A stretch of 64,000 nucleotides of DNA from Balanoglossus misakiensis (taxonomy: Eukaryota > Animalia > Hemichordata), in contig CM082576.2 of assembly GCA_040954595.2 (NCBI GenBank), positions 2,702,760-2,766,759 of the forward strand, given 5' to 3'. Each line of letters opens with the position of its first letter. Position 1 is the stretch's first letter. Shown one piece after another: positions 33,725-64,000 of the stretch. Under the pieces are notes generated by a model that ran no database searches, was not told the DNA's origin, and saw nothing but the letters and a program-made list of their open reading frames with translations. The translations under genes and the position numbers were made by a program.

Positions 33725-36700
33725 AGTAGCTGTGCTTTGATGCTCGCTGAAACGACAAATGTTACTTTTACTGGTACTTTTTCCCCTTTTATGTAGCTAC
33801 TAGGAATTCTGTGACAGAAGCATGGTCACCCTGGTTACCATGGTAATCATAACTGTGATAGAGAATCCTAAGCGTGCCATTGTGTGTTTGGTTCCACTCT
33901 ACTTGTCTGTGGGTTGGTCATTCATTTTGATTCCTGAAAATGAGAGAGAGGAGCAGATAAGACATAAGTCATCAGTCTGGAAATCTGACTGTAATTTATA
34001 CATGTACAGATGTGTAAATTTTAAAGAAACTTCAGGCACAAACATGTGACTAAAAGATCCCACCACTAGCAATTCTATGATCTGCACCAAAGAACAATTG
34101 AGCAAATATCATTTACTGAAAACTTACTAATGATGGCAATGATTCAAAACTGCAGGTACCCACTTCCTTTGAATATTCATTTTGTGATAAAAATCCGCTT
34201 CCATTACAGAAAACATTCCTCAGCAGGCTACCTGGTTGTGTGACTGACGGTTTCACCCATCAGTGAACATAATGCATTCACCCGAATCCAGGTACATCTT
34301 TTCATCAGAACCATTTACTATCAGACAATATCCATACAAGTGCAAGCCTCTTTTCATTGCATGCAGTGCTATTCAAATTGCCGGAACCCATTAATGCCTA
34401 CAAGCACAGCCTCTATGTCATTATTATGCCATGCCACGGATTCTCTGCACAGTATCAGTGACAATGACTTGGATATCAGCTATCAAAAAAAGTGGGACAC
34501 AGATTGATTAAATAAATTAGATAAACCTGATAGTTACATTTAGATGTGTTTTCTAATAGCTATTTGGTGAAAAACAATTCCCTTAAGAGTCTATGGTTCC
34601 CACTGTTTTGTATTGTCAATGAAGAAATCTGCCATATAAAACTGATTTCTTTTTTTTATTGAAAATATACATGTACCAGTAGGGGTGTTATTAATCAAAG
34701 TATAGTGATGAGGCGATATGATTATCTATTTAAGCACATGTGACATTAAACACCTTTGTATATTCTTTTTCAACTTTTGTAAGATTCACAATGCCTGAAA
34801 TATAAATATGGCACTGCAGTGGAACCAAAAAATTGCTCACTCCCCATAATTCATTACACTGACACATTTTCCATCTATGTAGTGACTGTGTATGATCATG
34901 CAGGCATACATTAATGATTTTGCCTTTTATTCTGCTATTATCGAACGAAACTCTGAAGATACCTATAATTTAACAAAACACTGATTTCAAAATAGCTGGA
35001 AGTTACAGTAGATGACTAGCAATGGGTGCACCCATAAACTGCCTGATGACCACGAAACACAAAGTGCCTTGGGCTTTGTATGCGTGGAAGTTTGATGTTT
35101 CACTCTCATTAGAAACATAATTTCAGACAATATAAAGGGAACATATTCAGTCCTAGTAATCTCTGACATTTTCCTTTACTACAGTACACCATCATTAGCT
35201 CTTCTGTCCTCAGGTAACAAGAAATCTTGACTAAAAAAGACGGATAAGATTTGCTTTGTATGGTCAATGTGAAGATCGACCGAAAAACTAATTCTGGGGG
35301 AATATCTGCTCTAGATCTCTAGGTCAAAACAAATTTTACGCATTACGCATCCTCTGGGTGATCTGTTTTAAATAACATTTTATTTCTCATCATATGGCAT
35401 TTCTATAAAAAAATGGTAAGAACGAAAACAAGCTTGAAAAGACCTGCGAGTTGTGCTCAAAGTAAATTATGTAGTATTATTTGGGTATATACCGGTATAA
35501 TGTGAAAGGATCGAACACAGATGGTGTACTTTTGGACATTAAAAAATTACTTTTGCTCTAGTTAATTTGTTTACTAGGCTGTAGTTAGTTTGTGTCAGTG
35601 AGATATCAGGCTTTTGGAGGCATAATCGATTCAGGAGCACTATATCAGAAATGTATGTGCTGTAGATGTGTTCACTTGAATTAAAACTTGACAATGCACT
35701 GTGAAACCTGTGTCCAAGGAAGTAATACAAGCACCCACATACTATCGGATGAACTTTATATAAACCCAGATAAACGAAATTAATAATAAAGCACGTTTAC
35801 CAATAATCCAAAATGTAATCAGATAGTATTAAAGTATTCTTTCAGGTTCAATAATTAATTTTTTTTCATTACGTACAGTAAAATGATAGGAATGATATCA
35901 ATGGCATAGTGTGGGTGACAAATACCATAATCCAGGCATCACGCTCTCAATCGGAACAAGAAGCAAAATGGCTGAAGATGTAGTGTTTTTGTGCAGAACA
36001 ATTACATTTAATGTGCTTTACAAGAGCACAACTACATATTAAACACATTAAGTCACCCTTCATAAATATGGATATAAACATAGATACATGCAATGCCTGA
36101 TTAAAAAGTGGAAAAGCATGGAAAAGTAGGACTGACAGAGTAAATGATCCATTCAGATCTGGTTCACTGGTCACTATGAATTCTCACTATGACAGTCCAA
36201 TATAAACATGTGTACGTGTAGCTCACTCTCTCTGAGGAGAAAGTTGGCAGTTTCAAGTTTAAAGTGCTAAAAGCAGAAGTTTGTTAAATATGCAAATTAG
36301 AAGTTAATTAAAATCCACCACACTAAATATTTCCTAAAATATGCAGATGATTATAAGTCTCAATACCTGTACAAAGTTCCATCCAATTTGGTAGTGTAGT
36401 TTTAAAAATATGCCATTAATTAGAAAAGTTCATTAAATATGCAAATTAGCAATTAATTGGTGTGACACCTTATACCACCATAGTCAAGTAGGCCTAAAAT
36501 TTGGTGTGGTAATTCTCTATATATGCAGATGCTGTCATGGTGCACTCCATAGACAAACCACTATCACAAAAATGTTGATCTTTGTTAATTTCATCAATAT
36601 GCAAGACACACCCACCAAATGCTAATCTAATGTTAGGGAGGGTACTATGTGGCCAAGGATGCAACATATAAAACAGAAACTTTCAGGAATAAATTGCTGT

Positions 36701-41812: not shown

Positions 41813-44800
41813 ATGTCCAACCAAAGCACCGTGATACACGTTGGAAGTCAGGAAAACATCGGGGACAGTGAGACTCTCTTGATACCGACCACCAAAGAGA
41901 AAAAGACTGGGGAGAATACGCTGACGGAAGTGGAAGCGACTGAAAGAACACGCGAGATCAGCGATGTCAACAAAAACGACTGCATCGCACCTGAGCAGCT
42001 GACCAAAGAGAAGTTAAATGACTTTGATAAAAATGAAACCCTTCAGAATGGGGGAAAACAGGATGATTGGACAAAACCTTTCAAAAGGAGATCATCCATT
42101 GAAAACTTTGGAAGATTCGGTCTGCTGACCCCGGCACTTATTCTTGTGCCTCAGATTGATGGGGTAGGTGGCTTACAAGTTGATGTCAGGCAGTTCTCGT
42201 ATGTAGGCGTCTTGATTGCATGCCGTCATTGTAGTGGCAAATTAAAAATGGTCAGGGTTTCACTTTCAATAGAATTTCCAATCAAGTAAAATCAATTTGC
42301 TGCTAAATTTAACCTGATAGTACTTAATAGAGTGTGTTAAATAACTGCGTCCAGTGCTTGGCTTTAATTCAACAACTTCAGCATATGCTGTGACGTGAAT
42401 CAGCCTCTTTGAAGAGTGCGTCGGCAAAGTTTAGTGCCCGGTGAAATGAATCCTAGGTACCATTTTTGGGTTCAGAACCACATACCATGCATCTACATTA
42501 TGCTTGTGAGTTGAAGAAACTGTCCAAAAGAGATGTGACAAAATGTAAAAGGTGGCTTAAATAAGCCACTGTGAAGATGCTGTTGTGCATGAATTGTGTA
42601 TACATGTATGTATGTATACACTGATTGGTGACTTTGTGTTCATCATTACCTACATCTATACATGTACGATGTATGTGTATGCATTGTGAGTTATTTCTGT
42701 ACTGTGACATCTGTTAATTCAGGTCAGTTTAATAATACATGTATGTGGGCTGATGACAACTAAAAATAATTTTTCACGATGTTCTCATATTGAATGAGGT
42801 GTAGATTTCGCTTGGCTCTTGTTGGTAGCTTTCTATAAAGAAGGTTAATATATTACATGTACGTGTGTTGCATAACTTCACTGAAGTGTTTTCATTTAAC
42901 GCTGTGTAACTGTTTTATTCCACATTAATTGTGTTACCAGGTGGTTCAGAAACTTAATACTTGGCATACCAATGGCGATTTCCATGGAATGTGTCGTGTT
43001 ATGTTTTGACTGGGTAGTGAATATGAGATTCCAAAATGTGACTGTGAGGTCAAAGTTCAAACCAACAATACGACCAATACCAGCCCCTATTTATAGCAGT
43101 GCAGTATCCCATCCCCCAGCATAATTCCATATGCTGAAAATAAGTCAAGGCCATTCCGCTGAAATTAATGCAATTTGGAATTAACATTGGCTCTAATTCA
43201 ATTGCTGTGTGAACAAAGGGTCTCTGATTATTGATTCCCATGTCCATCTCTCAGAAGCTGTCGTAGTTCAAGTTCAGAGCTTTATTCTTTCCTTGATTTG
43301 GACTTCTTCAAACATGACAAAACCTTAAGTTCTGTACTGCTATTGCAGTTAGATGGAGTTTAAAATTTGAAAGCTTTAGTCGGGAGTGAGTGAAAATTTA
43401 AGTGCCTTAAAAAACAGTTTCGGTGATCGGGTGATGATATCATTCGATGCATTGAGCCCCGAGGCACAGTTTTGTGAAAACAATTGTCAAAATGACAGTT
43501 ATAAAATTTATGAAGTTAACAATTGTGCATTACTGCAAAAATTTAAAGAATCATTTGACTATATTAGTGAATTGTTAACACCCAATCAGTAAATGAAAAA
43601 TAAACTCAGAAGCCACGTTTTGTACCTGCATTGTAATTAGCGTACATTGTGATAGCTTCGACTTAATTGCATGGGTCAACATGAAAATGATACTGTCAAG
43701 CATTTAATAGCGCAACAGAAAAAAGTATTGATCATTTCTCTGTTGATATTGCTGCACATGTTGCTTGATGTCTGTCTACAGTATGTTTGAATTGTTTCAA
43801 AGCCCTTGCATACTGGTATTTGGGAAATAAATGGCATCTTAAGCACTTCTGTGTGTATTTCCAGTTGCCTGTGGTACAAAATTTGAATAGACTGGAGTCA
43901 GGTTACTGTATTGGACGTGCTGTGACTATTTAAAAAAAGTATGACGTGAAGTAGTAAGAGATGACCTACCGTACCTCTGTCGTCAACGCTGGCTTGTTCT
44001 GTTTGGTCAGTGGGTTCGTCAAGTCCACTCTTGATAGTCAGGTTAAATTGATGGCCAAGCTGTCAATCATCATTAAGGTATTGAGCCAATTACAATACAC
44101 TAAATAACAGTTGAGCCGAGTATCGATTGAGATCAGGATGCCATCCCTGTGTGTCGGTCGTTCGCAGTGTTGATGACACTCCAATAGTTTGAAGCCGCAG
44201 AACATAAGTGATGAGTGCTGATGCCAAATGGTGCCCCCTGGTGGTGATGGATGGATTGATGTTCCATACATGGTAGTTTATGTGCGGAATGGTGTCCATT
44301 GCATTGCTCACTTTGTTACAGTGGTAGTCATAATAATTGTGTTAGCCATACGCCAGAGAGCAGGACGGCTGACTGCTATTAAAACTGTCAATATAAATGC
44401 ACTTATAGATCTTATGTATGACATGTGAAACGTTTATAAATACATCTCAGAAATTATTTTTATTGTATCTGTTTGTGAATTGTAATTATTTCTGGTAACT
44501 TTGTGGATTTCCAGTTATTGTTATTCGTAACTGCTGTGAGTTATGGAGGGCTAGACAGCTGTGGAAAATATTTGCAAGAAAGTTTAGACATTTCCCCATT
44601 TTCTTTTTCGCTGGCTGTTCTCATCTCTCACACAACACTGGGTGGTCTTGGGACACATTGATATCATTTGAATTTGTGCCAAGTTTTGAAGAAATGTGAA
44701 AGTTCATATTTTGACAGCTGAAGTATATGATGCCCAACATTTCAAGCTGATGCAGGATTTTGTATCATGGCATTCCAATGATGAGTACTGGCAATCCATA

Positions 44801-47800
44801 TGGATTACATGTGAAAATTACCAGTACCGGTACTAAGAGTTTCTTTGTTTTTCTAACTTCAGAATGATGCTTTGACGCAGAGATTCCCAGACCTTCAAGG
44901 TGAAAACAGGGAGCTGATCCTAGCTGCAGCTCACATCGATGATGCAATCAACGGTAGAGGTCGATACGGAAAAGCCAGGGCGATATTCAAGCCAAGAAAG
45001 GCTCAAACGTAAATTTCTCATTTTGTCTTGTCAGTTTTTAAAACAGGAATGAAAGTTTCTGAAATCAAGGTGTTGCAGATAAACTATGTTATTGAGAAGA
45101 GGAGCAAAATCATATTTTTAAAAAAAATTATTTGGAAATCTGTTAATCTTGGCTCTTACAGAACGGAGACAAACCAACATCGTATTTGTCTTTTATTATA
45201 TCTTTCAGATGTTTTGCAATTCTGGACAGCAGGTGGTTTAATAAGATAGTTTTAATTGCTATCATCATACACACTTGTCTTATATTCTTTGAACCTCCAC
45301 CTGTCAATGGGTAAGTGGGGTGTAATTTGTTGTGAGGAGCGGCTACCGTCTTCTGTCTTCAAAAAGCCATTAAAATAGTTTGCACTTGGATACCAGACGA
45401 GTTGTCAAAGAAGTCACACTTCTCTTGTGACTGAAATGAATTACTGAAAAAAACAAAACAATGTATCACTATCATTGAATCTAACTTAGGCTTCTGAGAG
45501 AAGTAGCGAATCTTATAAAATAGGGGAAAAAAGAAGCTTTCATAAAATGAACTGATATGTGCTTGGTAATGTCATAAACTAACATGACTATTATTTTTTT
45601 GTTTTCATCTTTTTTGTAGGACTTCCCCAGCAGTCTTTGCCCTTACAGCAGTTTGTTTACTTGTTTATTTACTGGATGTTTTGCTTTATATTACATTTTT
45701 AACGTGGCCAGTGTTTTGGTCCATAGCAGAGAACAGATGGATGAGGTGAGTTTGGCAGGATTTTTGTGTGTATAGTTCTGATATCCTATTGTCTGCTAGT
45801 ACAGAGTCAATACGAAATGAACTTTGACATGTTTCACTTTTTTTCCATTCCAGAGTGGAGTTTGTGTTTCTGTGTATGTTTACAGTGGATTTTATTTTTT
45901 TGATAATTCAAGAGAGTATACAAATGGTGAGTCAGAATTTCTTTTCAATGAATGAAATATTATAAGCTCTCTGGAATCTTTTCATGCGATGTTTTACTCT
46001 GCAAACGTAAAATCACTGTCTAGTGCATCTGTATGCATCTTGTTTTTCTCAACACACAATTACCCAAATACCTGGTGGGTACATGTCTGGCTGTACAAAA
46101 CAAACAAAAGAGTTTGTCATGTTACATGTACAGGCTTTAGAAACTTAGGCATGGTAGAGGTTAATGACCTGAGGCACTTGTGGCCAAGTTGCCATGACAG
46201 CCGTCGTGTTTATTTTCTTCAGGTACTTGAGAGTGCGGTAACGCGATTCTAAAAGTACGAACAGTTTTAAAGGTTCTTTTCTCACCGAAGTCTGTCCAGT
46301 CATATTAGGTGACCCCCTGACCCCTTGATAAGAAGGAGACAGGGAAACTCTCTGAGTGTGCTCGTCTGTGTGTTTCAAGATGTTGAGTTTTAGCTGTGAT
46401 GTTAATTTGTGGTGAGAAAGTTAGCAACAAGGTCCTCACATGGCGACGTTGAGTGAAATAAAAACAGGATTTCAGTTTGTCTGCAAACCACCAAACAAAA
46501 GTGAAATTGACACTTGCATTCAGAGGGTATAGAATGTACAGGTACCCTAAAAAGTGAGAGTAGATGTTTTGTCATATTGTTTGTGCCATTGATCTGCACA
46601 GCTATTGACCTACTGGGCAATGAGAATGGTTTGGAAATCTTTACACTAGAGTTTGGAAACTTCCATTAACTGACATTTATGCCCAGCGGCTTAAGTCTGA
46701 ATGTATTGTTGAGAGGTGTTGTGCTCCCTAGTGGGGAATTTGGATGATAAAGGAAGTAAAAGAGAGAAACTACATGTAAATGCAAACCGTGGTTGTTGAG
46801 TCTTTGCCATGCCAACGTCATTGTTTTATTAGTTTTGTCCTACACTGAGTTGATGTGTTTTTATGTAGCCTGTGATTTCAGTACTACATGTATATGTACC
46901 TGTTAATGGGTTGTGAAATGTGTAGACTGGTCATTGCAAGCAAAATATGAACAGTAGTTTGCAGGTTGTTCCAAATGAAAGATGTACTCAGTAGTTTTTG
47001 TTTTTCATCATCTAAAACTTGATTTTTGTATGTCACTTTTCCCATGAATTTGTTACAGTTGGTGATCATTTTACTTTTCAGAGACTAGCGCAACCTTTCA
47101 GATGTCTTCGAGCTGCTTTGCTACTGTGTAAATTAAATAATGTTGGTCACATTTATGACGTTGTTTTATCCATTGCTGTGAAAATGGCAACAGTGAGTAC
47201 AACATCCCTTTCATCATTGTAACATTTTAAAATACAACTTTTAGGTCCAGTTTGAGTACAGGTGACCATCCTCAGTAATCAATCTTGTTGACCCCTGACC
47301 TTATTTGTATAAAAAAGTGTGATTCAAGATATGAAAACCCCAAAATGGACAGTGTCAAATCCATAACTGTTGTTCTTCAACACGACGGATTGTATATTGT
47401 GTACATGTACATGTATGTAACAGTGCAGCTTATCCATGTCTATACTGCATATTATATTATTGTCTGTCTTTTTATCTTTTTGACAGATTTTCTTCATAAT
47501 CACCCTGTTCATTATTCTCTATGCTGCCATTGGTCTACACCTTTTTGTTATGGACTATCATTACATCGGCTGCAACAACACAGGGCTGGTGAACTGCACA
47601 GAAGATGCTGATAATATCTATACTGGGTAAGTTGTTCTCACTCAAACCTTTGCACCTAAAGCTTTCTGTGCCTAAATTTCTTGACAAAAATATTGTCATC
47701 TTGATGTTATTCTTTTGTTTTATACAAATATGTTGTGTTTTGTGGCAAACTTTGTGGCAAAAATGTTGATTCTTATTGTTTTATTGAAATTCTGTTTCAG

Positions 47801-50800
47801 TGCATTTGATCATGTTGGTATTGCTTCATTGAGGCTGTTTGTTCTGCTTACAACTGAAAATTACCCAGTGAGTACCACTACCCATTTTCATGTAGAATTT
47901 TTCAACAGAAGTCTGCCTTACATGCAATTAGATTCGACTGAGAGCGTGGTAAATCTTCACTCACATTTTACAGAAACTGCATGAAAAGACAGGTTCGGAA
48001 TTTGCAAAGCGTGTACTCTTCTCACCATCTTTGTATTTACTGAAACTCAAATATTAAGTAAGTTCTAATTACCGATATAACAGATGCTACTCAGCATTGT
48101 TCAATGGCTTGGATGCAAATATGTTTTAACTATGTTTTTTATAAAACTTAAATTTTCAATTTTTTTTTTTTACCTCATCCAGGCATTCATATTACCAGGC
48201 TATGCAAAGAGTGCATACAGCTTCTTCTATTTTGGAATATTTATTTACGTTGGTGTGTTTATCTTACTGGCAATTATGCTTGCTGTCATAGTTGATGGAT
48301 ATTGGTACGTATTTCCTCAGTTATGAAGTATATTGAAGTAAGGACCAGGATTAACAATTTCATCGTGCACATTTATGGTTGTCAATTGACACACTACATG
48401 TTGGTTTCTCAGAGTATCGTACATATAGTCACTATGACTTCCACCAAAGAAACTTATTACCATAAAAATCATCATCATCATCACCACCATGATCACCTGA
48501 ACTACATGTATCCTATCGCCAGGGTGTTTGCCAAGAAACATGTCAAACTGGAAAGGAGCAGGGAGAGAGCTGAACTGGCCAAAGCATGGAATCTACTGGA
48601 TCCACTAGGAGCTGGCATCCTGGAAAGGAGCGATCCCAAATTCTTGACTTTATTCCGGCTTCTAAGACCAAAGGTATACAAGCTTATGCTGAGTCTATCT
48701 GAATAAATTATAAATTCTCACCTGCCAAATTATGTGTACAAAGCAGGATTTGGCGAAATTCTTCAGTGTGAAATTGTTCAATGTTCAAAAACAATCTCTC
48801 GTTTTACTTCTCTGGCCAATCTCAAGTGACATTCATGGTTCATTTATCCCATATTTTTTTTGTTACAAAATTCAGAACACGGATGACATGAACCAGCAAC
48901 TGATTGATTACCTAGATGGAAATGATGATGGACACATTGACTCCTTTGAGTGGACAACAAGGCTGAATGAAACTCTGAGTTTTGAATTTGAAGAGGATGA
49001 AATGCACCTGCAGGTATGCTGTCTTTATTGGCAATTAACAGTTCCTAATTATACATGGTCACTAGAGGAAAATGTTCCTAAAAATGTGAATGTATTGATT
49101 TTGGACATTTAAATTAAAAATAGAAACACAGTACACCGAGTATCCAGCCTGTCCCAAGTCTCACTGTAACTATATATTAAAACAAAAACCATTTTCTTGT
49201 TTGACAGAGGACTTTTCCCAGATGTTTCCAGGTGATCAGAGATGGAGCTCACCGATTGATCAACTCTAGAGTGTTCTCCATAGCCATTCTCATCTTAATC
49301 ATTGTACATAGGTGGGTTAAAGGGCAGATAGCTGTATATGTAATAGCTTGATATTTGAAACATATGCCTAAAAATGCATCTGAAAGGTTTTAGGATTATT
49401 CCCAACCGCTGGGGTGGTTTAAAGGTGTATTGTAGCCTTCACAGTGAAAGCAATGTACAACCAGGTTGACATTTCGAGTTACTGGCTGTCTTACAGTTCC
49501 TGGTGGTCGATATGTATTTTGTCTTCAAAAAGATGTTTGCTTCATGCAGCATGGAGAAGGGGGAGATCAATTGAACGCATGGTGGTCGTTCACTGACGGC
49601 AGATCCTGAAGTGTCTCTCTTTGTGTTTCAGTGTCTTGTTTTGTGTGAGATGGTGGGGAATGAGTTACATGCAAGAACTTATCATTCAAGCAATCAGAAC
49701 CGTCATTGTGTCCATCTTTGTGGTAAGTTTATCATTATTCATGAAATGGATCATAAACTATCAAATGTGCATGTACATGGTCAGTGTCAAAGTTTTTGTT
49801 AGAGGTATCCTTTTCGAATGTTTTTTGTTAGTTTGAAGGATTTTTAACATCACCTCCATGAAAGTATGAAAATGAAACTTGTGTTATTTGTTTGCTGATT
49901 ATTACAGTTTGAGATTATTCTGAGAATGATGGGAGAGGGGCGTGGCATGTTACAAATCTTGGAGATACTGGACCTTGCGCTGGTCATCATAGCGTTTGTA
50001 GCCAATCTTGTTTGGTATGTGTTCATCGATAACACCATACACAGAGGAGCATGTGTTGTGACATCCTCGCTGGCTGTTGCTCTCCGAATGGGGTTTAATT
50101 CAGCTCAGGTGAGTCTATGTTTTCCATTGTTTTCCATTGTAATCATCCCTCAGGTGTATGAGTCAACATTTGTGATGTTGCATTGGAGATTTGGAGGAGT
50201 AACCAAGTACATGTAATAATATACAGAATCTTGTAAAATAGAAGGAAGTTGTGATTTGCTGTGTTTTCTTTTCCTTCTGTGATAAAAAAAGCACACAATT
50301 AATTCATATTTTGATATTTATTGTATGTTTATTGTAGACAAAGAGGCTGGTCAGTCTACTTATGAAGATTTTCCCTGTCATGTTCGACCTTACTGTGCTG
50401 GTGGTTATTATATTGTAAGTATATTTGAGATTTAAGATTTTGCCTGAGATTTGTTTGTGAATATTGTGATGAAGGAATGTGGAATTTCTAACATGTATCT
50501 TGGATTATCTGTGCCACAAAACTCAAATGCAGGCAGAGACATAGTTGTAGTCCTGTACTACCCATTACCTGTTTTCCCTTGTAGTTATTTCTTCTCCGTG
50601 GTCGGCTGGGAATTGTTCTACGGTTCAGCCCCTGATCCCACCTTTCAGACGGACTACTATCAGTATAACTGTGGACTTGGATTTCAGTCATTTCCGTAAG
50701 TGAGAAATCCGTTATCTTGTGAAGCAAAAGGTGGGGATATACATTGAAAAAAAGTTGCAAGATATGTACACTTTGCAAGATTTTGTAGAAGTGAGGAGAC

Positions 50801-53800
50801 TTACAATTCAACAAAATTTAGAGATTTGTTGATAGAACTGTGGGTTTGGGATGTACCTTGTTCCAAGTTTGTTTCAGTCCATATGTGCATGTCATGCGTC
50901 CATTATTGATAACCAAATCTTTTTTATTGTATATGATATTTTTTTATTCTATAATCAGATGTTCAGTGCTGGTGATATTCCAAGTCATGACGACCAGTAA
51001 CTGGCATGAAATCATGAATGCTGTAAGTTGTGGATTTCCATTAAATGAAAATGTACCGTAAAGAAAAGCTATTTTGTTTTGTAACTTCTGAATCATCGAT
51101 GTAAAAAATGGAATTATTCCAAACAGAAAAATTCCTATCATTAACTTAAAACAAGTTATAACACAGTGCTTTAATTCATTGTGCTTTCTGTTTCAACTTG
51201 CTAGGCCATGCTGTCGACCAGTGAGTGGGCGTGCCTTTATTTCATCACCTGCTTCTTTGTGATGGAGTTGATGGTTATGAAGTAAGTGTTGGAAATTCAG
51301 GGAGATTTGTGGTATTAGTATTAAAACATGAGAAATACTGAGAGTCCAAAACTGTTCCAATGGATAAAATGATTTGTTCATCTCACATGAAAGGTTTCTT
51401 GAAACTTTCTCTAAGATCTTGAAGCAATGTCAAAGCTGACATTTATGTGTTGTTACTATTGTAGTGGTGAGATTTTAATACAATCTGTTTCCTTCCCTCC
51501 AGTATATTTGTTGCCATAGCGATTGAAGCATTCAACAAATTAGGGAGTGAGAAAGAGATGGAACAGATGATCCAGGGAGATGATGTCAGCACAGAGGATA
51601 AGGTGAGAGGCAATCAGTGTCTGCAGACAATGTTGAAGTGTCACGATGCAGTTACTGTAACATCTTTACAGTTTCTACTCCGACTTTAAAAGACCTGGCT
51701 TGACATTTTGTGGAAAGTTGTGCATCATAATTTTACTACGATGACTTTTTTTTCAGGGCACGTTGGCGTCCACTGCCAAGAACTTCATCTCAGATATGTT
51801 TGAAAGCTCAAGGGTAAGTACGTCACGGAAGGTCACACATCGTTTTTTGACTCATCATTTATACCAAAATTCTTCTCCATCTTTGACTAATTCCTTTGTA
51901 TCATGGAAACTTGTAACTTTAATATCATCATGAACGTTTCAGTATGATTTAGTTATTTGTGAAGAGGTGTGTCTTTTACAATTAAAGAGGTTGACATCTA
52001 TTGATTGGTTTATTGAAATTTTGTTGAACAATTTAATGAGTATTTGGCTTTGATTTCCCTTTATCTCCTTCGCTGTAATTTTTGCAGAATGAGCCCGAGA
52101 GAAAACATGTTGCTGCAAGAAGAGGCAGTCACATTGTAAGTACATGTAGTCTTTGGAGGATCCAAAATCATTGAAAATAGCTGGATAATTTCACCATCAT
52201 GTTTAATGGAAAATCTCCCCCAGCTGATGTGGTATTCCCGAAATCTTCCAAATATAAAAACAACATTTTTTTCATCTTTTCAGAGTGCCATTAGCACGCT
52301 GCACATATCAGAGAAAGGAAGCAGTGTAAGCGTTCGTCCTGAGGAGGTTGGTGCAGTTTTGAACTCTACATATTGGAATGATGTTGTAATTGTCTGTATG
52401 GTGTGGTCAGTCAAAGGAAAACAAAGTACTTCTTACATTATTGAAAAAGCCATTTTTTATTTGAGACAAATGACTGATAAATTGATACCACATTCTTTAT
52501 TATTGAAATAATGAACAAATTAAGACAATTTCAACATTTCTTTCATAAGGGAAAGGACGACTTCTCTGACCTGCCAGCACAACTGAGACGAGAAAAAATG
52601 CTGAAACAGAAGATGGCACAGAGGAAGAAGAAACATGCCAAGTCAGCCATGACCAAGATTATTGTGATGACAGCATTCAAAGCGGACAGAGAAAATGAGA
52701 TTGACCTGAATGTTGGTGAAGAGGTCAATGTCATGGAAAAGGTTGGCAGACTCTTGTGAATTTTGACCCAAGATATTTCAAATCCAGTTGCATTGATTTG
52801 TGTTCGTTTGTCAAATCATGATCTCTGCAATCTTGCCTTAACATTGTCACCATAACTATTTGCTTGTTCCCCCCAGAGAAACGATTGGTTGTTGGGATCT
52901 GTGGGCGAGAAAACTGGATGGCTTCCAGCATCGCATGTCCGAGAGATGAAGAGGACTCACTCAGTGGAAGAGTCCGGCCATTCCGGCAGTGCCAGTCCTA
53001 AACCAGCATGGAACAGAAAAAGTATTGAAAAGTCAGATCAGAAGACGCAAGAGTCAAAGGTATGAGATGTAGGAATGTTTGTGCTCCTGTTGACATCATT
53101 TTTGGGGATCATTATCTGCCTGTTCCATTCACTCTTAAATAAACCTCATGACCTCTCATCACCTCTGGCCCATTTCACCAGGGTGACAAGAAGGGAGGCG
53201 ATCACACATCCTTTCACAATGCCGCCTTGGCCGCAGCTGCGACAACCCATCTACAGGTTCAGCAGGCGTCGTCACAGCAACCAAAACTGAAAATCAAGAA
53301 GAGGGAAACGGATTGGAGGAAGAGTATTCTTGGTGACATCACTGTCATGAATCCAGAAGAGGTAAAAGTCATGGCTGTTTTTCTGGGTTCTCTGTTTGTT
53401 TGATCACATTTGTTTGTCCCTTACCCCTGGTGACCCTTGACATCACATGGAGAATTGTCCCATAACATAATGCAATTACTGTTGTAGGTCCGAGAACTGA
53501 ATAAGATCATGAAATCTGAATTGAAATACCGCGGTAGGATGGTAGCTGGAGAGGTGAGTGCATAGTCTTCATAATCCACAAGGATTTGAATTTGGCATTT
53601 GATTATTTGCCTTTGCCTTGAATTTTCAAAAGTGACTTGATGTTTGCAAAATCTCATTTTATGTTAAATCACTAGTGTGGAACTAATTATTGTTTTATGA
53701 TTATTCTTCTCCATTTTTCAGTCTTCTGGATCCTTGCCAGGAACAATGAAGTTTGCATCAACTCTGTGAGTATATAAAGTTCGGAAAATTTTTCACCAAA

Positions 53801-55045
53801 AGTGACAATTCTGTGTCATGTGTACATTCTGGCCACACCAATCAGTGCCCGTTGCTCATTCTGAAAGTCTGGCAGGGGTACTGTGGAGGTCTCATCCTTT
53901 GACAGATAAAATTTATTTTTGGAGACAAACTTTTTAACCTGCATTCTCCTATTTTCACCAGAGATGGCAGTATACAGGAAGAAGACGGAGAAGCTGAAGC
54001 AGCTAGGTTGAACTTGACAGCACCTGGTCAAGTACGTTTCAAAGCTTTGGTGTTGTTAGTTTATGTCCTAAAGACCATTCACTGATCAATTGTGTATTGG
54101 TCACAAATTAAACACAGATTACTGTATCTTGACAGTGGGGTCACTATTTTCAGTTGTGATTTCTTGGGGGCCAACTCAGACTACATAAAGACAATAGAAC
54201 ACTCATAAAATCTCTGATTTTGCTTTGTGTAGATCAGAAGTGAAAAAGTGCCTTCCATCTCACTCGACAAAGTTGATGAAGGACAAGGAGAAAGTGGCAA
54301 AGGTAAGATCAACCCTTGTGCAGATGACTTTCTTTCCGAATGATATTGCGGGTTCCTGCTTGGTCACTCCACAAGTGGATGTGACCGTGGTTCCTGACAG
54401 AAAGTCATCTGCGACCGCTCACCGTTTGTGACCATTTCCATCATGTCTGAGGTGCACCTCGACCATGAGAATTACACGGTGAACTTTGATTGGCCAAGTG
54501 TGCTGTACACTAGGTACATGAGAGCATTTCATAAGACTGATGATCATTACTCTCTCCGAAGTAATACTGCAGTTGTACTTTTCATTTTCAGAAAACTCGG
54601 GGAGGAAAGAAAGTGGGGAGATGCCATCGTGGATGATGAAATTTGCCGAGACTCACAACATCAGCGTGACGGAAGATGTCAAAATGGAAAAACCGAGTGA
54701 AGAAAATGAGGAGTATGTTGTCTTTACTTTTTGTCATTGTGTGGGAATCAAAATACTAGTGGATTAATGTGAAGATTCTTTTTGATGTGAAAGAAGTATT
54801 TTTTGAATTCATGAATATTTCAGAGCATGTGTATGTCGGTGAAAGAATTGTGCTGTCAGATCTGTTTAGTTTGAGGCAATGATAGCGCCATCACTGGTCA
54901 AACTCCAAATTTCTGCTGTTTTCCCTGGCGGTTTAATTTTTCAAACATGGGACATCAGTTCCTAGATTTAATCATTTTTTGACTTCTATTACCTCACAGA
55001 CAATCGCTACCAGGAAAAACCAATATCCAGACAACAGAGCTGTGA
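41813..55045 (+). CDS. Atypical two-pore channel (TPC)-like cation channel with linker EF-hands and a C-terminal SH3 domain (~1156 aa, 31 coding exons)
   Basis: Exons, all GT-AG and phase-consistent, summing to 3471 nt: 41813-42163, 44863-45008, 45209-45310, 45620-45745, 45854-45926, 47082-47192, 47487-47626, 47801-47867, 48183-48304, 48523-48673, 48876-49013, 49208-49311, 49632-49722, 49908-50108, 50338-50414, 50585-50695, 50959-51022, 51205-51281, 51503-51602, 51757-51813, 52088-52135, 52284-52325 (or 52346), 52550-52741, 52877-53059, 53182-53361, 53488-53553, 53722-53765, 53962-54031, 54233-54302, 54592-54712, 55000-55045. TPC hallmarks: N-terminal LAAAHIDDAINGR, IS1 LIFFEPP, IS4 PFRCLR, pore I LFVLLTTENYP-AFILPGY, IS6 LAIMLAVIVDGY, IIS5 FSVVGWELF, pore II FQVMTTSNWHEIM, IIS6 MNIFVAIAIEAF. 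An in-frame TGA at 41756 supports the ATG at 41813. Junctions in the tail are less certain than those in the channel core. Confidence 0.88.
48523..49013 (+). other. EF-hand pair in the interdomain linker of the TPC-like channel
   Basis: Degenerate loop AWNLL-DPLGAGILERSD and canonical loop YL-DGNDDGHIDSFE-W (48915-48950; D1, N3, D5, G6, I8, D9, E12). Confidence 0.85.
52655..52948 (+). other. SH3 domain split over two exons of the TPC-like channel
   Basis: The spliced translation KIIVMTAFKADRENEIDLNVGEEVNVMEK|RNDWLLGSVGEKTGWLPASHVREM aligns with the SH3 pattern (ALYDY-A---DELSF--GD-I-V----WW-G----G-FP-NYV). Confidence 0.85.
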
Positions 55046-56222: not shown

Positions 56223-59200
56223 TCACCTTCTCTTGGTTCTTCGTCCTGAACGCGTTGTCGGTGTGCGACTCCTGCTGTGGTTGCTGGTGTCCGAGACATC
56301 AGTACAACTCTCGCACGCCCATTTCCCTGCAAGAGGTGAAAAAGGTCAATAATGTTGAATCAGGGTACAACAGAGATCGAGGTCACAATGTACAGGTTTG
56401 ACAAATACTGAACAAGTACCGGTAGTTGGTGACATAAAACTTGAGGTCACTGTACACATGCACATACATGATCATGCAGTGTAGAAAAATGACCTTTCCG
56501 GGGTGAGGAATGTATCCAAGTTGTGACCTGCACTGTGATCAGCAAACGATAGTTGTCCTGTGTTTCTATGCCACTTACTTGTCTGAAGTATAAAAATACG
56601 CGTGAAGGAAAAGAAAAGAAAAGTATGGGTACCTGTTGGAATGCTCTTAAGTCCCACACAGAAAGTATGGTATCCTCTGTCACACTCGTCACAAAACATC
56701 ATCTTGTCCTGCGAGTTATAAAAAGAAGGGTCAGAGTTCAAAAGGCAAAGGTGAAATATCAAATGCAAAAAGCTGAAGGTGTTTTTGAGAAACACTGGAA
56801 CTAGGTATGTCTGCACTGAAGTAAATAAGCTGTTTCGCACAAAAGGTGCATTGGAGGTTTGATGACTGTGTGACAAGGCTTGCTGTTTTTTATTTGGAAA
56901 GTTCATCACTTTGAAATTTGCCAGCAGTCTCTACATGGGACTCACCTCGTGTGTAGGATCACCGCAGAGTGTACAGGTCTTGCATTCCATGCACTGCCAC
57001 GGATACGTCTTGATCACCTTCACCAGGTCGTCACTCATTTCCAGACATGTTGGATGACCTGAAATCCAGTTTGTGAGTTTTAAAGTCAGATGATTTTAAG
57101 TCGAAATGTGGAGGCATTGTGGTCTAACGGCAAGGGTATCAAATTTGCTATTGCAGGATTGTAGGTTCGACACCTAGACATGGTTGTGGATTCATTATCA
57201 GAGAATGGGGAGTTTTTGAGACCTGGACATATGGCCATGATGGGCATATCATATGAGGTTTTGCTCTTGAACAGCCTTCAAATGGTTTTAAAATGCATGA
57301 AGAGAATTTCAGTGGTTGTGTATGCAAGTACGTGAAGAATCCATGCCGCGTTGTAGACACTACAAAGGATTTGATCAACAACTCACCGCTGTTGTCGCAC
57401 TGCGAGCAGTGAACCAAGATTTCCTGGAAACCCTTCTTGTTCGACTGCTCGCCCTTCAGGCAGATCCCACATATTGCATCCGGAATATCCTTAGCCTGCT
57501 CATGAAGAAAAAAGATGGACATTTAGTGAAGGAGTCCCCAAAAATACCTGTAAGAGGGATGGCTGTTGTGATGTCTACACAGTACTGTAACACACAACTC
57601 AGATTACATCAGGCACCCAGAACTTTCCTAGTGAATGGAACACTTTTCAGCTCTGTTGCATAATACCACTGGTCGTGTTTTCTCGTACACTGTGCTGGGC
57701 GAATGACTTCACATGCACACATCACTGCACTGATGGTAAACAACATGTAATGTGTGATTCATGTTTCATGCGATGTGCACAATGCTACCAGTAAAGTTTT
57801 TTTCCTTTTGTTTAATGATACATTACCTATACACCACAGGTAATACTCAGCACCATACAACATGTTTCATGAAAAACAAGACTCGATGGCAAGGTTTGCG
57901 ACAGAGACGGGGCATGCTGATGAAGGGAACAACAGCAGTGAGGCTGATGTCAGAGGTGAAAGGTCAAAGGTGACCACACGCGCACAGCCACAGGAACAAC
58001 ATTTGCAGACATGACACGACAGCTTACACACAACATAGGGACTTTAAGTACACAACACAAAGCACAAGTCAGCAGCGCTGGCGGAAGGTTAAACAGGGAA
58101 TTTTTTTTTTCTTTGAAAGAAAAATGAAGAAGGTAACAAAGTCCAAGGTGTAAAAGGGAAAGATTTGGACACCTCTTTGTTGACTGTGTCCTCCTCCTTC
58201 GCCTTCTCATCCTCAGTATCCTGCTCACCCTGCTCAGCAGGCTGTGACTGCGTTGCGTGTTACAACGGCAACAATTCAAAGAAAAAAAAGACAGAAGAAA
58301 GAGAAGAGAATCAATAAATATTTATACATTAATATTTAAAAGCTGGGGGGGGGGGGTAAAATCACTCTAGGCTTGAAAATCTCTCAAGCAGGTGAACAGA
58401 TTGTTGTTGCCCGCTTCCAAATTGTTGGACAAAATGCAAATTTTGGAAATTTTCTCATGTGTTTGGGGTTGCCCTGTCAAAGAGGTTGCCTGCCATTTTG
58501 TTGGCTGCCAGCCAAGTCTTTGGTTTTATTCAAGAGAGCTGGGGGAGCTTTCCACTGCTGGCTCTCACCTCATTGGCTAACAGTTCTGACTTCGACTGGA
58601 AAGAAATCTAAGATCAGAGAATTTGTCAAGCCATGTGATACTGGAAGAAAATGAAACAGTTTCCTGCAGTATGAGTCTTTTAGAGCTGTAATGTCAGAAT
58701 GTTTTTTTAGGACAATAAGATTTGAGTCCAGTTGGTATAGTTTTCAGTTGTGTCATCAGAGCGACTTTAAAAAAAGGAAACCAAGTCCTTTTCCCCCAAC
58801 ATGGAAGATCAGCTAAATCTAACAACTCTGACTAAACAGCTTTAAAGTTTCAGATTTGTTAACTCACAATAGGTGAGGTATTAAGTCTCAGAAACCTGAT
58901 GTCAGTATAAAGTTCAATAATACTATTGACTGTTAATTTGAGATAATTTTAGTTATTTCTATTGTATGAGCAGACTTAAGTATAATTGAATACAGTTTAA
59001 GAAAGTATAAACAAGTAGAAAGAAACACCATTCTTCTGGGGTTTGGTGTACATCTGTTTCACCTTATATCCCTTCTTGCTCTGTTTGTTTGCTTTATCTG
59101 ACTCGTTTTCGGCATCAGATTCTTTGGAGCCACTCTCACTGCCACTGCTGCTGTCAGATCCAGATCCATCACTTGATTCACTGTCCTGATGATGAATGTA

Positions 59201-63455: not shown

Positions 63456-64000
63456 TTAAGATGACTTGGTTCCTCTGGCCAATACACACTCCTGGATCAG
63501 TATGTTGGAAAAATCAAGAATGTCTTCACAGGGAATTCGTGTAATTTTAGCAATGTGCTCAACCACTCTTTGCAGCAAATCTTGATCAATGATGTAGGTT
63601 GCTGCTCCAATGACAGCAACTGCCAGAAACATCAAGTCTTGTTCAACAGTTGCAAACTGCTCCAGATCTTCTTCTGAGACATCCATGCTGTTGGTGGCGA
63701 GAGCACGCAGTTTGCCATACACTGCCTGCCTCTCCAGGATTGTCACATCCAGAACATCCAGGCAGGTGGCGTGTAGCACCTTCACATTTGCGCAGTTATC
63801 GTTGTAGCCAAGAATTTCCAAAAGGGCTTCAATATAGGTGAGTGCTGAAGTAGACGGCACTTGGAAATCCAGTGTTTTGAGGATGCTGAGTTCAGAAAGC
63901 AGGATACTGTCAGTTGTATATCTGTGGCCAGCCTCTGATAAAAAGCGCTGGCACTTTCTCAGTGTTAGAACCTTGCTGTGAGAACACAGTTTGCTTGCGA
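63456..64000 (-). CDS. CNTD1: Cyclin N-terminal domain-containing protein 1 (CNTD1/COSA-1 family meiotic crossover factor); 3' portion, 5' end beyond the right edge
   Basis: The frame is open from the window edge: ASKLCSHSKVLTLRKCQRFLSEAGHRYTTDSILLSELSILKTLDFQVPSTSALTYIEALLEILGYND...LHATCLDVLD...EQFATVEQDLMFLAVAVIGAA...VVEHIAKITRIP. This matches recalled CNTD1 motifs (ASKL, SEL-VLK-L-F, YVETLLEVLGYN, LHATCL, EDFMLLAVGII). A minus-strand AATAAA lies at 63151-63146. Confidence 0.9.
   Translation of the reverse strand, partial: ASKLCSHSKVLTLRKCQRFLSEAGHRYTTDSILLSELSILKTLDFQVPSTSALTYIEALLEILGYNDNCANVKVLHATCLDVLDVTILERQAVYGKLRALATNSMDVSEEDLEQFATVEQDLMFLAVAVIGAATYIIDQDLLQRVVEHIAKITRIPCEDILDFSNILIQECVLARGTKSS

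Follow-up and report, generated by a model that had tools for sequence, protein, structure and literature searches.

Introduction

Cav channels obtain an SH3 domain in trans, from the beta subunit or from STAC proteins, and a channel of the voltage-gated superfamily normally meets SH3 domains either through proline motifs of its own that SH3 proteins bind or through subunits that bring the SH3. To our knowledge, a pore-forming subunit with an SH3 domain of its own is unusual among the channels of this superfamily that have been studied. The two-pore channels TPC1-3 of animals and TPC1 of plants carry two 6-TM Ion_trans repeats on one chain, and plant TPC1 has in addition a pair of EF-hands in the linker; TPC1-3 are further characterized by an endolysosomal location and by gating through NAADP or PI(3,5)P2.

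A further group of two-repeat channels lies outside TPC1-3: the TPCR (TPC-related) clade of Rahman et al. (2014, Sci Signal 7:ra109), for which we draw on parts of three sources (PMC4278181; PMC8490419; PMC12839299). According to these parts, TPCR is present in choanoflagellates and has a filter said to recall that of Cav channels (PMC4278181), and a 2026 review, in the part used here, describes it as a clade of unicellular organisms, 'not found in animals'. SH3 domains are unmentioned in these partial descriptions of TPCR. The diatom channel 'TPCL' (PMC11085791) is, by the part of its description used here, different from the channels reported below, being devoid of both EF-hands and SH3.

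The window analyzed here is the whole of a 64,000-nucleotide stretch of the genome of the hemichordate Balanoglossus misakiensis; all coordinates below are window positions, on the plus strand. We propose, with a probability of roughly 0.55, that window positions 52655-52948 encode a real SH3 domain, split by a 135-bp intron, in the tail of a 31-exon gene for a two-repeat channel with putative EF-hands, and that this domain probably docks a non-classical ligand and not a plain PxxP peptide.

Results

The channel gene extends from a start ATG at 41813 to a stop TGA at 55043-55045. The homology-guided model (41813-55045; guided by P0033 and P0001, as homologous proteins that are themselves mostly predictions) has a complete CDS of 3492 nt and 1163 aa in 31 exons, with GT-AG borders at 30/30 introns and no internal stops, and its product is a two-repeat cation channel with a putative EF-hand linker and an SH3-bearing tail. 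The nearest gene is the orthologue in the acorn worm Ptychodera flava. The P. flava protein used throughout (P0001, 'uncharacterized protein isoform X2') is an N-terminally short isoform from a related but different genome; the window protein is 79.6% identical to it over 937 aa, and the window gene is colinear with P0001, P0033, P0002, and P0008.

Two exons encode the SH3 domain. Exon A (52550-52741) has AG at 52548-49 and GT at 52742-43, and exon B (52877-53059) is bounded by AG at 52875-76, which follows a pyrimidine tract, and by GT at 53060-61. The lengths of both exons are divisible by 3, and they are joined in phase 0 across the 135-bp intron 52742-52876 (GT...pyrimidine tract...AG), unspliced read-through of which would reach a stop after five codons (VGRLL-stop). 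The junction (...EK/RND...) is identical in the annotated P. flava orthologue, and the assignment of the 52741/52877 junction rests on homology and on that annotation. Upstream, the exon with the end of S6 of repeat II (51503-51602) is connected to the SH3 exons by small linker exons (51757-51813, 52088-52135, and 52284-52346). Downstream, the next exon after exon B is 53182-53361.

Joined, exons A and B yield an SH3 domain of 53 residues (52655-52948, from the first K of the SH3 through the M after HVRE). The N-terminal half (aa 876-904; 52655-52741) contains the first strand, the RT loop, and the next strands, ending ...MEK; the C-terminal half (aa 905-928; 52877-52948) contains the conserved W, GWLP, and ASHV. 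An earlier note on this DNA, made from the letters alone, had read here an SH3 encoded in cis in an ion-channel tail, visible only after splicing 52550-52741 to 52877-53059, with VMTAF at the place of ALYDY, a DRENE RT loop, the conserved W, GWLP, and SH for NY, and with a basic helical segment in front of it. Each of these elements is borne out: the splice sites are clean and in phase, the P. flava annotation uses the same junction, the listed features are present in the joined reading, the domain lies in the one reading frame of the 31 exons, and the basic segment is a helix in the orthologue model.

The results of profile searches support the identification. Exons A and B taken alone match complementary halves of the Pfam SH3 models, each below threshold: exon A matches SH3_1 positions 3-27 (11.8 bits, E 0.19), and exon B matches SH3_2 positions 32-54 (15.3 bits, E 0.016). 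On a profile made from 25 family SH3s of non-hemichordates, the spliced window SH3 reaches 79.6 bits, as compared to 7.4 for the best of 500 shuffles. The threshold-passing Pfam matches and the predicted SH3 fold come from the P. flava orthologue domain, which is 90% identical to that of the window (6/62 positions differ): residues 639-689 of P0001 score 29.7 bits with SH3_1 (cut-off 22.9) and 29.6 bits with SH3_2 (cut-off 21.8).

The AF2 model of the 62-aa orthologue SH3 stretch (pLDDT 86.7) is a confident SH3 barrel with five predicted strands, at stretch positions 4-8, 27-34, 37-42, 45-50, and 54-56. In Foldseek, each of the best 50 of 202 matches (E <= 0.001) to this model is an SH3 domain or a protein that contains one. 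TM values among the top matches go up to 0.90-0.95, and the best match has TM 0.90 and rmsd 0.6 A. A PDB sequence search with the same stretch returns intersectin-2 (3.9e-8), p47phox (7e-8), and NCK2 (8e-8). The best sequence and fold matches are with SH3s of adaptors (NCK2, intersectin-1/2, p47phox, beta-PIX, CIN85/CD2AP, and Gads/Mona), which sit in soluble proteins, whereas the family SH3 sits in a channel tail; the NCK2 SH3 has 41% identity and TM 0.83 with the family SH3, and the SH3 of E. histolytica myosin IB has TM 0.90. The better Foldseek and PDB matches include SH3s solved with non-standard peptides, namely those of beta-PIX, CIN85/CD2AP, Gads/Mona, and STAC. We conclude that the tail domain of the window channel is a genuine SH3, as judged by its profile matches and by the fold predicted for the orthologue domain.

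Classical PxxP-binding SH3s build their first proline pocket from the aromatic residues of ALYDY and SNY, and the Trp, the Pro, and the acidic RT loop constitute the second pocket and the specificity zone. We tallied the corresponding residues in 32 animal members of the family, assigning ALYDY and SNY positions through HMMER alignments to solved SH3s. The position of the first ALYDY Tyr is occupied by T in 16 members, A in 4, S in 3, and other residues in 9, and is aromatic in none (0/32); the position of the SNY Tyr is occupied by H in 26, N in 3, and C in 3. In the printed alignments, intersectin-2 and NCK2 retain the ALYDY-type aromatic residue and the SNY tyrosine, whereas the family SH3 has both replaced. 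The second ALYDY Tyr position is F or Y in 31/32, an acidic RT-loop residue is present in 29/32, the Pro in 32/32, and the Trp in 26/32, members without it including those of Owenia, Lingula, Tubulanus, and tunicates. The window SH3 has T at the first ALYDY Tyr and H at the SNY Tyr, and retains the Trp, the Pro, and the acidic RT loop. The altered groove that had been noticed in this single sequence is accordingly a property of the whole set of animal members: by their residues, they appear to lack the aromatic first pocket of classical PxxP-binding SH3s and to keep the second pocket and specificity zone.

For the channel that carries this domain, Pfam Ion_trans matches P0001 in two stretches (4.9e-45). 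The pore filter of repeat I is LLTTENYP (47844-47867), with a Glu in the filter that, as (S/T)TENYP, only two of the aligned members covering the stretch lack; the pore filter of repeat II is MTTSNWH (50987-51007). The second putative EF-hand loop of the inter-repeat linker reads D-x-N-x-D-G-x-I-D-x-x-E (48915-48950). The EF-hand exon scores only 14.1 bits with Pfam EF-hand_5, and orthologues score 17-25 bits with EF-hand_7, under the cut-off of 30; some choanoflagellate relatives pass Pfam EF-hand cut-offs. When 27 channel exons were compared singly to Pfam, two weak matches only were obtained; the exons are short.

Several cytoplasmic motifs accompany the SH3. The N-terminal region has a conserved motif (...KRRSS.ENFG.FGLLTPAL.LVP; 42074-42151). 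Exon A begins with an acidic motif of D-x-S-x-L type (52550-52576), followed by a polybasic helix (aa 852-871; 52583-52642) that is conserved across the family, lies directly before the SH3, and is predicted as helix 612-634 in the orthologue model (pLDDT about 77-81). An HR1_TOCA match on this helix (E 0.036, 14.8 bits versus a cut-off of 27) was rejected as compositional. About 70 aa after the SH3 lies a strongly conserved tail motif (...DWRKSILGDITVMNPEE/VRELNKI...; 53281-53514), which is split by the intron 53362-53487 and is predicted as helix 795-815 in the orthologue model (pLDDT about 60-69). A second conserved tail motif, EMPSWMMKFAE, is encoded at 54618-54650, and the C-terminus (55004-55042) contains SLPG and ends T-E-L, which looks like the ending of a PDZ ligand.

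To place the channel, we used trees made with quick methods and left unrooted. In a FastTree tree of 55 proteins and 655 columns, the family and choanoflagellate clades are split with support 100 from 25 canonical-type rows, only one of which is named (P0099, a sea-urchin 'TPC2-like' protein), and the animal clade groups with choanoflagellate sequences. A repeat-level tree, likewise quick and unrooted, gives the same split and puts both repeats with TPC repeats (support 99 and 100). That tree gives no support to a candidate reading in which four-domain channels would be closer kin of the family than of the TPCs. In a PDB sequence search with the channel, Cav3.1 ranked first (2.3e-32), but over 3 stretches. 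In Foldseek, the best matches of the full-length model are mouse TPC1 and AtTPC1, at a TM of only about 0.24, which reflects a loose domain arrangement in the monomer model and supports channel type only. The family shares with TPC1-3 and plant TPC1 the two repeats on one chain, and, as in plant TPC1, its linker has a putative EF-hand pair; in contrast to TPC1-3, to which its identity is only about 25-27%, it has the filter Glu, long N- and C-terminal tails, and the SH3. The trees place the host channel in the TPC superfamily of two-repeat channels, not with Cav, and place the family outside the TPC1/2/3 clade.

The SH3 is widespread among relatives. An SH3 Pfam family is present in 38/45 of them, from sponges, cnidarians, annelids, brachiopods, echinoderms, amphioxus, and tunicates, and in 16 of the 17 members scanned the SH3 is above cut-off, single, and always after repeat II. 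P. flava P0001 has the same layout as the window protein (repeat I, a putative EF-hand pair, repeat II, and then the polybasic helix, the SH3, and a long tail), as do unnamed orthologues from echinoderms, amphioxus, tunicates, an annelid, a brachiopod, a nemertean, cnidarians, and sponges. The order of acidic patch, polybasic helix, and SH3 is fixed and lies some 110 residues beyond the gate helix S6 of repeat II; this module is conserved in animals from sponges to chordates, and choanoflagellates have the SH3 at the same tail position. Channel and SH3 are on one EukProt ORF labelled 'type:complete' in Oscarella pearsei and, as transcriptome ORFs, in four choanoflagellates. This distribution makes the channel-plus-SH3 arrangement an old one. 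The database names of the relatives are automatic only ('uncharacterized', 'TPCN1', 'two pore calcium channel protein 1-like', 'sodium channel protein type ...'), and a literature search found no paper on an SH3-bearing two-repeat channel or on the SH3 tail.

Discussion

According to the reading that we prefer, the channel would be anchored through its SH3 to a partner of scaffold, cytoskeletal, or regulatory type. The animal SH3s would use the half of the groove that they keep (second aromatic, Trp, Pro, and acidic RT loop), with small or polar residues and His in place of the tyrosines of the first proline pocket, and the ligand would probably be a motif that contains Arg/Lys or is atypical in another way. 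Further anchoring may come from the polybasic helix and the PDZ-type C-terminus, and the putative linker EF-hand would make the channel Ca2+-sensitive. Against this reading stand the missing Trp of some animal members and the fact that, among the conserved motifs of the N-terminus and tail, we noticed no classical PxxP motif that is conserved.

An unlikely, though not negligible, alternative is that the ligand lies within the channel itself: the SH3 would act as an intramolecular clamp, binding a conserved motif of its own polypeptide and thereby regulating gating or exposing the tail. Candidate partners would be the N-terminal motif ...FGLLTPAL.LVP, the basic segment that precedes DWRK, or the helix with EMPxW. 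Several of the cytoplasmic linear motifs roughly equal the SH3 in degree of conservation, the EMPxW-type motif is found in animals and in 3/4 SH3-bearing choanoflagellate members, and the acidic RT loop adjoins polybasic segments, all of which a clamp would accommodate. However, the candidate motifs match no recognised type of SH3 ligand, and the Pro of the 'PRLK' stretch is confined to ambulacrarians and amphioxus.

Degenerate SH3s elsewhere serve as packing or dimerisation modules. It is rather improbable, in our estimate, that the SH3 fold of this family is likewise a structural or assembly domain of the tail and not a peptide reader, and here animals and choanoflagellates point in different directions. 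In the four choanoflagellate SH3s, the Trp, the Pro, and both tyrosines are absent, and only a G, the G-W, and the core pattern are invariant. The loss of Trp and Pro in choanoflagellates favors a structural role, in that the ancestral role may not have been peptide binding. In contrast, the retention of the Trp, the Pro, the aromatic residue, and the acidic RT loop in the animal members, at the frequencies given above, points to selection on a binding groove, and the linkers on either side of the SH3 are predicted to be disordered in the orthologue model (pLDDT < 50), which also argues against a packing role.

Docking of a non-classical ligand, as we propose, has to be distinguished from a more specific analogy, raised in the earlier note, in which the SH3 would do in cis what the SH3 of beta or STAC does in trans for Cav channels; this we consider very improbable. 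The likeness to Cav-beta (SH3-GK) and STAC (C1 plus tandem SH3) is that a voltage-gated-superfamily channel has an SH3 at its cytoplasmic face; the difference is that the SH3 is on a separate protein in those systems and within the pore-forming polypeptide in the family. In favor of the analogy are the Glu in the repeat-I filter of the host channel and the presence of STAC SH3s among the significant PDB sequence matches, mid-list at E 5.8e-5 to 3.9e-4, with STAC SH3-1 at TM 0.88 to the family SH3 model in Foldseek. Against it, the host channel has two repeats, which in the trees fall with TPC-type repeats and outside the four-domain channels, Pfam scans of P0001 and 17 members detect no GK, C1, or second SH3, and the best 60 PDB sequence matches of the SH3 stretch include no Cav-beta chain. 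By this search, the SH3 has no special likeness to Cav-beta: its best sequence matches come from adaptors, and neither from beta nor from STAC.

That the SH3 exons are a separate downstream gene, joined to the channel by an artefact of annotation or modelling, is scarcely credible: the gene model did lean on homologous proteins that are mostly predictions, but the reading frame runs without a break through four linker exons whose splice sites are canonical, the same order recurs in the 38/45 relatives of many phyla and in the 'type:complete' EukProt ORFs, and no start codon or promoter is needed between S6 and the SH3.

The family is already in public databases, under its automatic names. By description, it resembles the TPCR branch, whose named sequences are those of Salpingoeca rosetta, Monosiga, Capsaspora, and Thecamonas: it has a Cav-like filter feature, the repeat-I Glu, and it groups with sequences of other choanoflagellates, and it carries an SH3, which the partial TPCR descriptions leave unmentioned. 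Tentatively, and at somewhat less than even odds, we suggest that animals except vertebrates and ecdysozoans keep a TPCR-type two-repeat channel, of a branch that recent reviews regard as a possible image of the Cav/Nav ancestor. Its defining trait would be a scaffold module within the pore subunit, made up of the polybasic helix, the atypical SH3, and, in deuterostomes, the PDZ-type C-terminus, which would supply in cis what Cav channels get from accessory proteins.

Recent reviews call the TPCR branch absent from animals, and this suggestion, if true, would contradict them. Two-repeat channels are used for reasoning on the origin of four-domain Ca2+ and Na+ channels, and an animal TPCR-type clade, if true, would provide tractable species for testing the conductance and location of such a channel, candidate species being Nematostella, sea urchin, amphioxus, Ciona, and acorn worms. 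For the SH3 itself, the conserved replacement of the two pocket tyrosines would be a clear mutational handle.

Predicted splicing of the SH3 exons and structure of the channel gene

Inspection of the sequence at 52300–53300, together with a script, delimits two exons on the + strand. Exon A (52550–52741) is flanked by AG on its 5' side and GT on its 3' side; so is exon B (52877–53059), where a pyrimidine tract leads up to the AG. Each exon has a length divisible by three, which puts the predicted A/B junction in phase 0; read-through from exon A into the intron meets a stop five codons on. The joined exons encode ...VMTAF.ADRENE...MEK/RNDW...GWLPASHV... (slash, junction), reproducing the features of the spliced SH3 domain that the earlier note had read from these two intervals, and the domain's first through last residues correspond exactly to the stretch assigned there, 52655–52948.

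A word search with exon A retrieved P0001, a 937-aa Ptychodera flava 'uncharacterized protein isoform X2' with 89% identity across the exon and with precomputed Ion_trans and SH3 families. Matches by tblastn of P0001, P0033 (an N-terminal fragment from Glandiceps talaboti), and two full-length relatives were colinear on the + strand from 41813 to ~55042. A homology-guided splice-site search gave a gene model of 31 exons (ATG, 41813; TGA, 55043–55045) with a 3492-nt CDS encoding 1163 aa, GT-AG boundaries at 30 of 30 introns, no internal stops, and 79.6% identity to P0001 over 937 residues. The SH3 domain occupies residues 876–928; S6 of repeat II ends in the exon at 51503–51602 (+), and four small exons at 51757–51813, 52088–52135, 52284–52346, and 52550–52741 (all +) join this S6 to the SH3. 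The intron at 48296–48522, before the exon at 48523–48673, contains a low-complexity run that reads as seven His in one of its frames and does not look like coding sequence.

Two annotations of orthologues bear comment. The P0001 isoform X2 as annotated begins inside repeat I, at the exon matching 45854–45926, so that the N-terminal motif and S1-S2 would be missing; this short form may be a real isoform or an annotation variant. The Glandiceps talaboti orthologue is annotated as two proteins, P0033 (N-terminal, 610 aa) and P0017 (C-terminal, 542 aa), which are probably one split gene model.

Several frames flank the channel gene. A single open frame of 381 aa at 32651–33796 (−), which lies in a GC-richer block at 32–34 kb, ~8 kb upstream of the channel gene and on the opposite strand to it, matches Pfam Fuseless (2.5e-78). 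Drosophila fuseless is linked to presynaptic Ca2+-channel localisation, which makes this frame beside a channel gene a curiosity. Downstream lies a PHD-finger gene, with exon-like frames at 56472–56930 (−; PHD, 1.1e-6) and 57148–57522 (−; a Cys/His pattern and no Pfam match). A 180-aa frame at 63456–63998 (−), open at the window end and with no Pfam match, probably represents an exon from another gene.

The spliced domain is an SH3

Singly, the two exons give sub-threshold Pfam matches to complementary halves of SH3 models: exon A to SH3_1 positions 3–27 (11.8 bits) and exon B to SH3_2 positions 32–54 (15.3 bits). The window's spliced SH3 scores 79.6 bits on a profile of 25 family SH3s from other phyla, vs. 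7.4 bits for the best of 500 shuffles. The strongest tests (Pfam thresholds, fold) were made on the orthologue P0001 rather than on the window's joined protein, from which it differs at 6 of 62 residues around the SH3. Residues 639–689 of P0001 exceed the curated cut-offs of both SH3_1 (29.7 bits; cut-off 22.9) and SH3_2 (29.6 bits; cut-off 21.8), and Ion_trans matches two stretches of the same protein (4.9e-45). In a sequence search against solved structures, the 62-residue P0001 stretch matched intersectin-2 (3.9e-8), p47phox (7e-8), and NCK2 (8e-8). Its fold, predicted with a 34-row family alignment, has five strands (mean pLDDT 86.7); every entry listed in the best 50 of 202 Foldseek ranks (E <= 0.001) is an SH3 domain or a protein containing one, led by a match with a TM of 0.90 and an rmsd of 0.6 Å. 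We conclude that the window domain is a genuine SH3.

Distribution of the SH3-bearing channels

The SH3 is shared across the family: a Pfam SH3 family is recorded on 38 of the 45 relatives retrieved with P0001, and a fresh scan of 17 members found one SH3 above cut-off in 16, always C-terminal to repeat II, the seventeenth being an N-terminal fragment. In a protein atlas the P0001 cluster has 70 members, 96% with SH3_2. The taxon range, drawn from the named fraction of matches, includes echinoderms, hemichordates, amphioxus, tunicates, Owenia, Lingula, Tubulanus, corals, Nematostella, Hydractinia, jellyfish, and sponges; vertebrate, arthropod, nematode, and mollusc names do not occur among the 45 relatives, which is no proof of absence. 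An exhaustive HMMER search gave 3219 matches at E <= 0.001 and 39 at <= 1e-30. The next tier under the animal members consists of choanoflagellate transcriptome ORFs, four of which carry SH3_2 above cut-off (Codosiga hollandica, Mylnosiga fluctuans, Salpingoeca infusionum, and Hartaetosiga balthica); a ctenophore fragment has a sub-threshold SH3 match.

Position among two-repeat channels

Repeat I has the pore filter (S/T)TENYP, and repeat II has TTSNWH. Across the family, the Glu-bearing filter of repeat I (47844–47867) is conserved, as is an EF-hand loop of canonical appearance in the inter-repeat linker (48915–48950). In repeat II, S4 is sparsely charged. In a quick, unrooted FastTree of 55 two-repeat proteins (655 columns), the 16 animal members form a single clade (98). 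Its neighbour is the choanoflagellate clade that bears SH3s (95), beyond which come an SH3-less choanoflagellate clade and haptophyte-type sequences; all these are separated (100) from 25 canonical-type rows, including one sea-urchin 'TPC2-like' protein. Placement inside the four-domain channels is countered by a quick, unrooted IQ-TREE of 77 repeats (253 columns), where each family repeat groups with the matching TPC-type repeat (99, 100).

No paper describing a two-repeat channel with an SH3 turned up in a full-text literature search. As summarised in PMC4278181, Rahman et al. (2014) named as 'TPCR' a clade of two-pore channels (TPCs) of unicellular organisms with a filter recalling Cav channels, and TPCRs are recorded from Salpingoeca, Monosiga, Capsaspora, and Thecamonas (PMC8490419). 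According to a 2026 review (PMC12839299), TPCR genes 'are not found in animals' and may give a picture of the two-domain channel ancestral to Cav and Nav. From the filter Glu and the grouping with choanoflagellates, we infer that the animal SH3-channel family is TPCR, matched by description rather than by named TPCR sequences.

Tail architecture and binding surface

A fixed order precedes the SH3: an acidic stretch, a D-x-S-G-L-T-like motif, and a ~20-residue polybasic segment. The full-length P0001 model has a mean pLDDT of 68, with ~90 for the SH3 and <50 for the linkers on either side; the basic helical segment noticed earlier is predicted as a helix at 612–634 (pLDDT ~77–81). The SH3 sits on flexible linkers ~110 residues past the inner gate. 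At the C-terminus, the window protein ends T-E-L (55034–55042), and ambulacrarian and amphioxus orthologues end S/T-x-V/L or similar, with D/E-x-V in sea urchins; this ending looks like a PDZ ligand limited to deuterostome members.

When aligned to solved SH3s by HMMER, VMTAF falls at the ALYDY-type residues and ASH at SNY. Counts over 32 animal members show no aromatic residue at the first ALYDY tyrosine position (T in 16, A in 4, S in 3, and other residues in 9); at the second, 31 have F or Y. Of the 32, 29 retain the acidic residue of the RT loop, 26 the Trp, and all of them the Pro; the SNY tyrosine position holds His (26), Asn (3), or Cys (3). Neither the Trp nor the Pro is present in the four choanoflagellate members. 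By these counts, the altered surface remarked on in the earlier note holds as a family-wide trait, not one of the window alone. In SH3 domains, the positions counted here are assigned to the two proline pockets. One half of the classical SH3 groove is retained and the other half is replaced.

Alternatively, the SH3 ligand could be a motif of the same channel, which the SH3 would clamp; the family strongly keeps two tail motifs, ...DWR(K/R).ILGD.TVMNPEE...LN.. and (E)MP.W..(K)F, and has a conserved motif at the N-terminus. A second alternative is that the SH3 binds no peptide at all and is a structural domain. The earlier comparison with the SH3s of Cav-beta and STAC, an argument by analogy, has no specific support. 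We prefer a reading in which the SH3 would dock a ligand of non-classical type, a partner protein being the likeliest.
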